Positions 10,221-11,310 of a stretch of DNA of 46,786 nucleotides are shown here, in pieces. Under the pieces are notes generated by a model. The model saw nothing but the letters and a program-made list of their open reading frames with translations, did no database searches and was not told where the DNA came from. The DNA is from Rotaria socialis (taxonomy: Eukaryota). Each line of letters begins with the position of its first letter. Within the stretch, counting starts at the first letter, position 1. A program made the position numbers and the translations under genes. The stretch is taken from assembly GCA_905331295.1 (NCBI GenBank), contig CAJNYD010000027.1, forward strand, positions 62,001 to 108,786, read 5' to 3'.

Positions 10221-10387
10221 ATAGCGTCTCAGGCGTTTAAATGACACGATGATTGACTCTTAAATTCTTCATCTATTCAAAATCAGTTTTTTTTTCTTCT
10301 TTCATCTAATAAATATTATTCTCGAAAGTTTTGGTGCTATATATTTTTCAATATTATAGATATAAGCTCTTGTTTTTGTACCGTTGA

Positions 10388-10642
10388 ATGGGATTTGTCC
10401 GATTTTATAAAACTCGTTTAAGTCCGATTGTTACTCTAGTTGCAATTGTTGCTGGTATTCATATATCTTGGTGGTCAATTCAACAAAAGTTAGTTGTGAA
10501 GAAAAAAAAGAAATTATAATATATTCATTTTTCTAGTCCAGCACTTGTTCCTCCCTCTGAACGTCGCCGTAATTTATTAGGCTTTCGTATCCCGTATTTA
10601 TCGCCACCAGTTGCCGATAAGTATAACGAAAAAAGTGAATGA
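10388..10642 (+). CDS. Microprotein 1 (68 aa, single TM), first cistron of a putative tricistronic unit
   Basis: Exons 10388-10488 and 10537-10642 (GTTAGT..CTAG intron) give MGFVRFYKTRLSPIVTLVAIVAGIHISWWSIQQNPALVPPSERRRNLLGFRIPYLSPPVADKYNEKSE*. The stop TGA overlaps the next ATG. Confidence 0.75.
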
Positions 10643-10955
10643 GTACAACACAATCATCAACACCAGGTTACGATCCATTCAACGTTAAACCATTAAAAGT
10701 TCGTACGAGACGACTATTTGCACCTAGCGGAGGTTCTCTTTCATTAACAACAGCTACTGTGCTTATTGCTAGTATATCTGCGTGTTTTTATCTACTAGTA
10801 CCACTTGAATATATAAGGTAAACGAAGAAAGATAAAACAAGCAAAATATTATTATTACTGTTTTTTCGATTGATTTTAGACCCGAGATAATTGGTTGGAA
10901 TCGTGCATCTCGTGCTCGAGAAATACTTTTGAAAGAACAAGAACAACGAAAATAA
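10639..10955 (+). CDS. Microprotein 2 (84 aa, single TM), second cistron
   Basis: Exons 10639-10817 and 10880-10955 (GTAAAC..TTAG intron) give MSTTQSSTPGYDPFNVKPLKVRTRRLFAPSGGSLSLTTATVLIASISACFYLLVPLEYIRPEIIGWNRASRAREILLKEQEQRK*. Confidence 0.75.
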
Positions 10956-10957
10956 AC

Positions 10958-11310
10958 ATGGGCTTATTTAAAGAAGGTGTTTTTGCTTTTCGTGGTCGTC
11001 GATTTGTCGAATGGCTTTTCATGAATCGTCCTCAAATTCCTATTGCGTTTGGCGTTTCATTTTATACTTTGTTGTATCTTCATTATAAATATGATTTGAT
11101 TGCTCGATGGAAAGGCGAACCAATTTATAATGATTAGTATGTATTTCACTTATCGAATCATGCCTTTTTATTTTCATATTTATTCTATTATTATTTAGTT
11201 CCTATGTAAAACAAGCTGCTGAACACGAACGTACTACTCGTCTTACTGCTCTTTCTTCTTTCCCAACGCCTGAAACTTCTTCATCATCTTCATCAACCGG
11301 TGCTAGTTGA
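10958..11310 (+). CDS. Microprotein 3 (96 aa, single TM), third cistron
   Basis: Exons 10958-11136 and 11199-11310 (GTATGT..TTAG intron) give MGLFKEGVFAFRGRRFVEWLFMNRPQIPIAFGVSFYTLLYLHYKYDLIARWKGEPIYNDYSYVKQAAEHERTTRLTALSSFPTPETSSSSSSTGAS*. It starts 2 nt after the ORF2 stop. Confidence 0.75.

Follow-up and report, generated by a model that had tools for sequence, protein, structure and literature searches.

A probable spliced-leader-bearing tricistronic mRNA in the bdelloid rotifer Rotaria socialis, likely translated by leaky scanning

How can three proteins be made from a single animal message? Animal cellular mRNAs that give three proteins are rare, and the trans-splicing machinery normally breaks up polycistronic messages. 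The question is raised by a locus of the rotifer Rotaria socialis, where three short open reading frames, ORF1, ORF2 and ORF3, follow one another on the same strand. The locus lies in a stretch of 46,786 nucleotides, called here the window, and all coordinates count from its first letter. The first-pass annotation of the window had proposed a signature of leaky scanning, namely upstream cistrons free of ATG and starts in weak, weak and strong contexts. That proposal gains support from four orthologous loci and from a site-by-site avoidance of ATG at synonymous positions. Judged from sequence and RNA contigs, the three ORFs are probably translated by context-dependent leaky scanning.

Table 1. 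Features of the tricistronic locus and of the gene upstream of it (positions in the window).
Feature	Position	Strand	Description
TMA7-like gene	9922..10220	+	57 aa; 2 introns, both removed in all four runs of the first set
AATAAA poly(A) signal of TMA7	10308..10313	+	from sequence; kept in L001 and L003
Trans-splice acceptor AG for the rotifer spliced leader (SL)	10358..10359	+	SL loose ends in X1 and X6; AG kept in L001 and L003
5' leader	10360..10387	+	28 nt, ATG-free, ends TTGA; about 51 nt including the SL
ORF1	10388..10642	+	68 aa; exons 10388-10488, 10537-10642; start TGAATGG; one hydrophobic segment, residues 13-31
Intron 1	10489..10536	+	48 nt, GT..AG; RNA joints
ORF2	10639..10955	+	84 aa; exons 10639-10817, 10880-10955; start TGAATGA; one hydrophobic segment, residues 36-54
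Intron 2	10818..10879	+	62 nt, GT..AG; RNA joints
ORF3	10958..11310	+	96 aa; exons 10958-11136, 11199-11310; start AACATGG; weakly hydrophobic segment, residues 25-43, and Ser-rich tail
Intron 3	11137..11198	+	62 nt, GT..AG; RNA joints
3' UTR common to all three ORFs	11311..11501	+	poly(A) at 11501 in X3; in X6, at 11384 and close to 11498; X1 contig reaches 11766

The structure of the transcript can be read from contigs of eight of the nine sequencing runs that contain the locus; run X8 was left out, and X5 and X7 gave only fragments. Such contigs are not single molecules and rare isoforms are dropped from them. Seven of the eight runs were classed as RNA by guess, and the spliced joints argue that they are RNA. 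All three introns of Table 1 are removed in these contigs. For instance, each of the four runs of the first set (two studies) has a single contig that leads from 10358 through all three introns into ORF3. Run X6, which carries a different organism code and comes from a different study (45 letters differ over 855), has an 875-nt contig from the SL to the poly(A) tail at 11384, and a contig of X9 begins in the last part of ORF1 and reaches the 3' UTR. Altogether, the three ORFs are found on single spliced contigs in five of the eight runs, and in X1 and X6 these contigs begin with the SL. In X1, 20 loose 5' letters together with the AG of the acceptor agree with the published 23-nt Rotifera SL at 22 positions (PMC3795323, Table 1).

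On this message the ORF2 start overlaps the ORF1 stop by 4 nt (ATGA), and the ORF3 start lies 2 nt past the ORF2 stop. The leader that corresponds to the 28 nt of the window is 31 nt long in the orthologous locus L001 and 17 nt in L003, and both retain the TTGA. In the eight runs, whose contigs drop rare forms, the ends listed include no SL and no poly(A) tail between ORF1, ORF2 and ORF3; X1 did retain four short alternative ends of the TMA7-like gene upstream, with poly(A) at 10338, 10339, 10356 and 10358. The three ORFs likely share one mature SL-capped mRNA.

What sets the first two cistrons of this mRNA apart is a lack of ATG. From start 1 (10388) to start 3 (10958) there are 460 spliced nucleotides, and ATG occurs in them only at offsets 0 and 203, which are the starts of ORF1 and ORF2. 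Even in the unspliced sequence, the plus strand from 10388 to 10958 has no ATG besides 10388, 10639 and 10958. ORF3, in comparison, has six internal ATGs in 291 nt, so that the counts of the first-pass annotation are reproduced on the RNA-confirmed exons. Its rough expectation of about 8 ATGs in 460 nt was likewise close, since mononucleotide composition predicts 7.7. Dinucleotide shuffles predict 7.3, and only 11 of 3000 shuffles had two ATGs or fewer. A set of 21 further coding exons in the window, picked by hand and one of them cut short by an early-matching anchor, has 163 ATGs in 6798 nt; at this rate 10.9 would be expected, with a Poisson P(0) of about 2e-5. When synonymous codons are resampled with the protein held fixed, the probability of finding no out-of-frame ATG is 0.0006, and the lack of in-frame Met by itself is not significant (P = 0.12); these P values concern a region that was selected for its ATG-poor look, and the orthologues provide the independent check.

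Orthologous loci were sought in one metagenome scan, in which 214 pattern matches were reduced to five loci; one of these, L005, covers part of ORF3 only and was dropped. The remaining four (L001 to L004) make up five loci together with the window; they are mutually related, all with about 70-88% protein identity, and L002 is without start 1. All four retain the three ORFs and the three intron positions. The first-pass annotation had proposed to count ATGs in such orthologues, and had named freely occurring internal ATGs or strong upstream contexts as what would speak against leaky scanning. Neither is found in the four loci. No internal exonic ATG precedes start 3 in any of the five loci, over 445-488 nt, and the order of weak, weak and strong contexts is kept.

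By contrast, introns 1 and 2 of the five loci contain eight ATGs in 522 nt, every one in the orthologues, and each ORF3 contains five to seven. On the antisense strand, there are three to seven ATGs per locus. In L003, an ATG stands immediately upstream of the trans-splice AG, that is, in the part that is removed. At the protein level, internal Met in the exonic parts is absent from all seven homologues of ORF1 and all seven of ORF2, versus 14 of 15 ORF3 homologues that have one, mostly at one common position. The absence of in-frame Met is partly a family trait of ORF1, because seven of ten distant ORF1 homologues are also without Met in the core. The locus L002 taken alone gives a synonymous P(0) of 0.055, which is not significant. 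Another feature of L002 is that, near position 890, its ORF3 ends about 11 codons sooner than in L001 and L004, inside the Ser-rich tail, and this tail looks dispensable.

How the ATGs are avoided becomes visible at the level of single codons. The codons for Tyr, His, Asn and Asp end in C or T, and a T-ending codon creates an out-of-frame ATG risk when G follows. In ORF1 and ORF2 of the five loci, all 11 such codons that stand before G have a final C, while 58 of the 61 in other places have a final T. Before G, the T-ending form is used in 96 of 117 cases in the background exons and in 14 of 16 in ORF3. Likewise, none of the 17 codons that precede TG in ORF1 and ORF2 has a final A; A is used in 34 of 71 such cases in the background and in 9 of 12 in ORF3. 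After sites shared between loci are collapsed, all ten distinct alignment positions avoid ATG (joint P about 7e-6). An example that is specific to one lineage is His25 of L001, which is CAC precisely where the following codon begins with G. Among out-of-frame triplets, pooled, ATG is the most depleted (0 against 15.6 expected; in ORF3, 23 against 22.0), and two further triplets, CCA and GCA, are missing as well (7.9 and 7.2 expected), which indicates that the synonymous null is imperfect. Judging from codon choice, the switch to C before G is targeted avoidance of ATG. The composition of the proteins cannot produce it.

The start codons themselves form the second part of the signature. As the first-pass annotation had stated and as is read directly from the window, ORF1 (T at -3, G at +4) and ORF2 (T at -3, A at +4) differ from ORF3 (A at -3, G at +4). 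In the five loci, start 1 is TGAATGG in the three complete cases and start 2 is TGAATGA in five of five; start 3 has A at -3 and G at +4 in all five, with its remaining flanks differing. For comparison, TGAATG surrounds 64 of the 2031 ATGs of the window. T at -3 counts as weak by the general rule for positions -3 and +4, as given in PMC2978622, a rule that may not be the bdelloid consensus. The purines at -3 that had been claimed for four other genes of the window are found there, being A in TMA7, A in PP1, G in arginase and G at the candidate start of NUCB. A pyrimidine occurs at this position in two unverified candidate starts, those of a GPCR-like gene (C) and of the first ATG of a 512-aa ORF (T). 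Downstream of the three starts, no consistent RNA structure was found.

A model of translation can be built on these features. Ribosomes that scan from the SL-capped 5' end would initiate at ORF1 part of the time. The remainder would scan through ATG-free sequence to the weaker start of ORF2, and those that pass this start as well would be caught at the strong start of ORF3, which would result in three proteins in a set ratio. Leaky scanning is favoured because it covers the ATG-free upstream cistrons, the weak-weak-strong starts and the freedom of the last ORF alike.

Another model, which had also been named in the first-pass annotation, is coupled termination and reinitiation. Here, ribosomes that finish ORF1 would restart at the ATGA, and again 2 nt past the stop of ORF2. 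The tight junction between ORF1 and ORF2 does speak for it: the ATGA overlap is present in four of five loci, the ORF1 stop and the ORF2 start always touch, and the gap between ORF2 and ORF3 is short. The junctions are, however, all that it covers, for it needs neither ATG-free ORF bodies nor a weak start 1, and their geometry is not constant. ORF1 of L002 ends in a TGA directly before the ORF2 ATG, without overlap. A more distant relative is like L002, in that the protein P0053 ends where P0042 has a Trp before the Met of ORF2 (these are gene calls, with ORF2 47% identical). The gap between ORF2 and ORF3 measures 2, 11, 12, 24 and 24 nt. Start 1 is also preceded by TGA, yet no ORF ends there. 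In caliciviruses, the TURBS motif TGGGA lies shortly upstream of a fixed stop-start overlap. TGGGA is absent from the last 120 nt of ORF1 and of ORF2 in all five loci. Since the stop-start geometry is variable, reinitiation is disfavoured; as the main route it is improbable, and it could act in addition to leaky scanning.

A further possibility is that the message hides monocistrons. The SL would also be joined at the acceptors of intron 1 and intron 2, or internal promoters would be used, so that ORF2 and ORF3 would each begin at the first ATG of an mRNA of their own. Resolution by SL trans-splicing is a rotifer-specific rival that was absent from the first reading. The animal does use SL trans-splicing, contigs drop rare forms, and the ATG-free distance from the two acceptors to the starts that follow is 102 nt for start 2 and 78 nt for start 3. 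Against this, the loose ends listed for the eight runs, X1 (depth 64) and X6 (depth 149) among them, include no SL at 10537 or 10880. Under this model, ATGs would be tolerated in ORF1 exon 1 and in the first part of ORF2, yet this sub-region has none in five of five loci (249-276 nt, about 6.5 expected in each). The synonymous P(0) for the sub-region is 0.004-0.015 in three loci, 0.085 in L004 and 0.35 in L002, and seven of the ten avoidance sites sit where the monocistrons would not need them. The weak starts would be left unexplained too. Hidden monocistrons are thus a quite unlikely account of the locus.

The least probable explanation, which can hardly be maintained, is that ORF1 and ORF2 act as regulatory uORFs and dampen ORF3, or that the ATG gap stems from amino-acid composition and chance: the in-frame Met absence alone would permit it, ORF2 is without a recognised family and some ORF1 pairs have dN/dS near 1, but the reading frames, introns and hydrophobic segments of ORF1 and ORF2 are kept across Rotaria and Adineta, HMMER homologues of ORF1 reach a mussel, and the switch to C before G is not derivable from protein composition.

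Leaky scanning as the preferred model requires three genuine coding regions. Homologues of all three ORFs are found in Rotaria species, and those of ORF1 and ORF2 also in Adineta steineri. Between the window and the other loci, dN/dS is 0.33-0.35 for ORF1, 0.31-0.61 for ORF2 and 0.24-0.39 for ORF3; in two comparisons of one locus with another, ORF1 reaches 0.81 and 0.93. The differences listed for X6, a partial list, fall in 8 nonsynonymous versus 2 synonymous codons in ORF1 and 7 versus 4 in ORF2. By its conservation, each of the three ORFs reads as a conserved protein-coding gene.

Only ORF1 offers a lead to a known protein. Its HMMER profile matches 18 proteins at E <= 0.001 among 1.84 billion, two of which are repetitive and look false. 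The remaining matches include diverged unnamed proteins and one of the mussel Potamilus streckersoni (P0045, E 4.6e-4); no vertebrate match to the profile was listed by HMMER. The best Atlas cluster for ORF1 is 'LOC128706665 homolog', of 63 aa, with a score of 0.94 and 213 of 256 features in common, where shuffles reach 0.9 in 4-10%. Human LOC128706665 overlaps the MKKS 5' UTR and has a predicted link to complex IV, according to a preprint (bioRxiv 2024.10.01.615885). The protein uMKKS1 is described in two papers as a mitochondrial protein of 63 aa, encoded by an upstream ORF of a three-ORF mRNA (PMC11837024, PMC7066179). From length and annotation, we infer that LOC128706665 and uMKKS1 are the same. 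The resemblance of ORF1 to human uMKKS1 is a lead that comes from Atlas features rather than from alignment to the human sequence. More tentatively, all three products may be small single-pass membrane proteins, and that of ORF1 is probably mitochondrial, its location cue being a basic N-terminus with one hydrophobic segment.

For ORF2 and ORF3 no family was found in Pfam, PDB or Foldseek, nor in Atlas for ORF2 or in VIA wide for ORF3. Pfam gave nothing for the six exon pieces of the window, weak unrelated matches for 3 of 15 full or partial ORF2 and ORF3 homologues (E 0.11-0.36), and, for the 13-member ORF1 alignment, matches to single members only (E 0.024-0.29). The profile search of PDB sequences reached a best E of 0.68 for ORF3 and 0.58 for ORF1, with none for ORF2. 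AlphaFold2 models are of low confidence (pTM 0.32 and 0.24). Foldseek returned one row for ORF3, a yeast complex I chain that is not significant (E 2.7), and none for ORF2; VIA wide gave ORF3 a best Z of 4.0; and Atlas matched ORF2 to bacterial clusters below 0.9, taken as noise. A three-chain complex prediction without alignments scored 0.01, which has no bearing either way. Possible likenesses of ORF2 and ORF3 to SMIM20, SMIM8, UQCR11 or NDUFB1 were dropped, as no search gave support.

Public gene models fuse ORF1 and ORF2 in Adineta steineri (P0031, P0051) and TMA7, ORF1 and ORF3 in Rotaria magnacalcarata (P0058). These fusions are probably prediction artefacts, with a real fusion in A. steineri as the less likely alternative. 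They are read as annotation errors because the RNA contigs studied here are without such joints, and the tricistron would account for them.

The origin of the mRNA would involve the gene upstream, presumably TMA7. It is also found upstream in L001 and L003, the loci that are long enough, and in the fused R. magnacalcarata model. Its poly(A) tails at 10338-10358 adjoin the SL acceptor at 10358, a conserved layout of upstream poly(A) site and downstream SL. Because these ends abut the trans-splice acceptor, the junction between TMA7 and ORF1 has the layout of an operon boundary. The tricistronic mRNA appears to be cut by trans-splicing out of a TMA7 operon precursor.

Two side observations concern this region. 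A block at 10308-10359 is conserved in L001 and L003 and leads from AATAAA over a TGGTGC motif and a T run to the AG, and some of the poly(A) tails end right at this acceptor; the arrangement is reminiscent of nematode operons without an intercistronic gap, and the TGGTGC motif could serve in operon processing. Further upstream, the PP1-like gene (9395, minus strand) and the TMA7-like gene (9922, plus strand) have head-to-head starts 527 nt apart. This arrangement suggests a shared bidirectional promoter for PP1 and TMA7, which would drive the tricistron too.

Other parts of the window contain candidates for horizontal acquisition, which is common in bdelloids. By their appearance, these are presumably an intronless 512-aa ORF like a membrane oxidoreductase (12713-14251, minus strand), an intronless arginase (22951-23925, plus strand) and a YbaY-like exon beside antistasin-like and Kunitz-like exons (28361-28756, plus strand). 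Three near-identical copies on the minus strand (29438-29928, 30418-30857 and 35393-35940), with two open frames in common, are probably a repeat or mobile element.

The tricistron seems to be maintained in an animal with trans-splicing machinery of its own, which is used 28 nt upstream. The switch to C before G, together with TGAATG starts, offers a comparative signature for finding such mRNAs in rotifers and in other animals that use an SL. If ORF1 is an orthologue of uMKKS1, then ORF2 and ORF3 would be two partner candidates for a human mitochondrial microprotein about which little is understood. A broader reading, speculative and rather doubtful, is that bdelloids have a two-tier system, in which trans-splicing cuts operons and some mRNAs stay polycistronic by means of a dedicated TGAATG leak context; the present locus would be a fixed-ratio module for three small mitochondrial membrane proteins with the uMKKS1 orthologue in first place. 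If this were true, mammals and rotifers would both have uMKKS1 at the head of a three-ORF mRNA, each with other partners behind it.

Several known systems can be compared with the locus. The same signature has been shown by reporters to act through leaky scanning in algae (PMC11291117), in the silkworm (PMC2978622) and in the fly genes sloth1/2 (PMC9681215). The silkworm uENF1-uENF2-PP message is, as the rotifer one probably is, a cellular tricistronic mRNA of an animal, conserved in relatives and translated by context-dependent leaky scanning, which for the rotifer is the probable reading. Its ORFs, however, are related cytokine precursors and its start 1 has A at -3, whereas the rotifer ORFs have no recognised mutual relation, T at -3 at starts 1 and 2, and an SL. 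The bicistronic loci of green algae share the weak upstream context, the small upstream ORF and the depletion of ATG before but not within the last ORF. Their median depletion is about half; in the rotifer, an animal, the depletion is total across two cistrons and 460 nt, and the mRNA bears an SL.

Drosophila sloth1-sloth2 encodes small single-pass membrane proteins, as predicted here, a few nucleotides apart and with a weak start followed by a strong one. It consists of two paralogous ORFs (SMIM4 and C12orf73), while the rotifer ORFs are without a Pfam match of useful E. The mammalian uMKKS1-uMKKS2-MKKS message is again a three-ORF mRNA, to whose first protein ORF1 provides the lead (PMC11837024, PMC7066179, bioRxiv 2024.10.01.615885); it differs in that the downstream partners in the rotifer are not MKKS.

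Finally, the SL-resolved operons of nematodes, tunicates and chaetognaths resemble the boundary between TMA7 and ORF1, as their poly(A) site abuts the SL acceptor (PMC12460157, PMC2776167). They are resolved into single cistrons, whereas the downstream product in the rotifer appears to remain tricistronic. Among the literature matches listed, which include few subscription papers, no paper treats this locus, and none deals with polycistronic mRNAs that stay unresolved in rotifers. Leaky scanning on polycistronic mRNA is known already, and what appears new here is a probable SL-bearing rotifer tricistron in which ATG is completely depleted across two cistrons.
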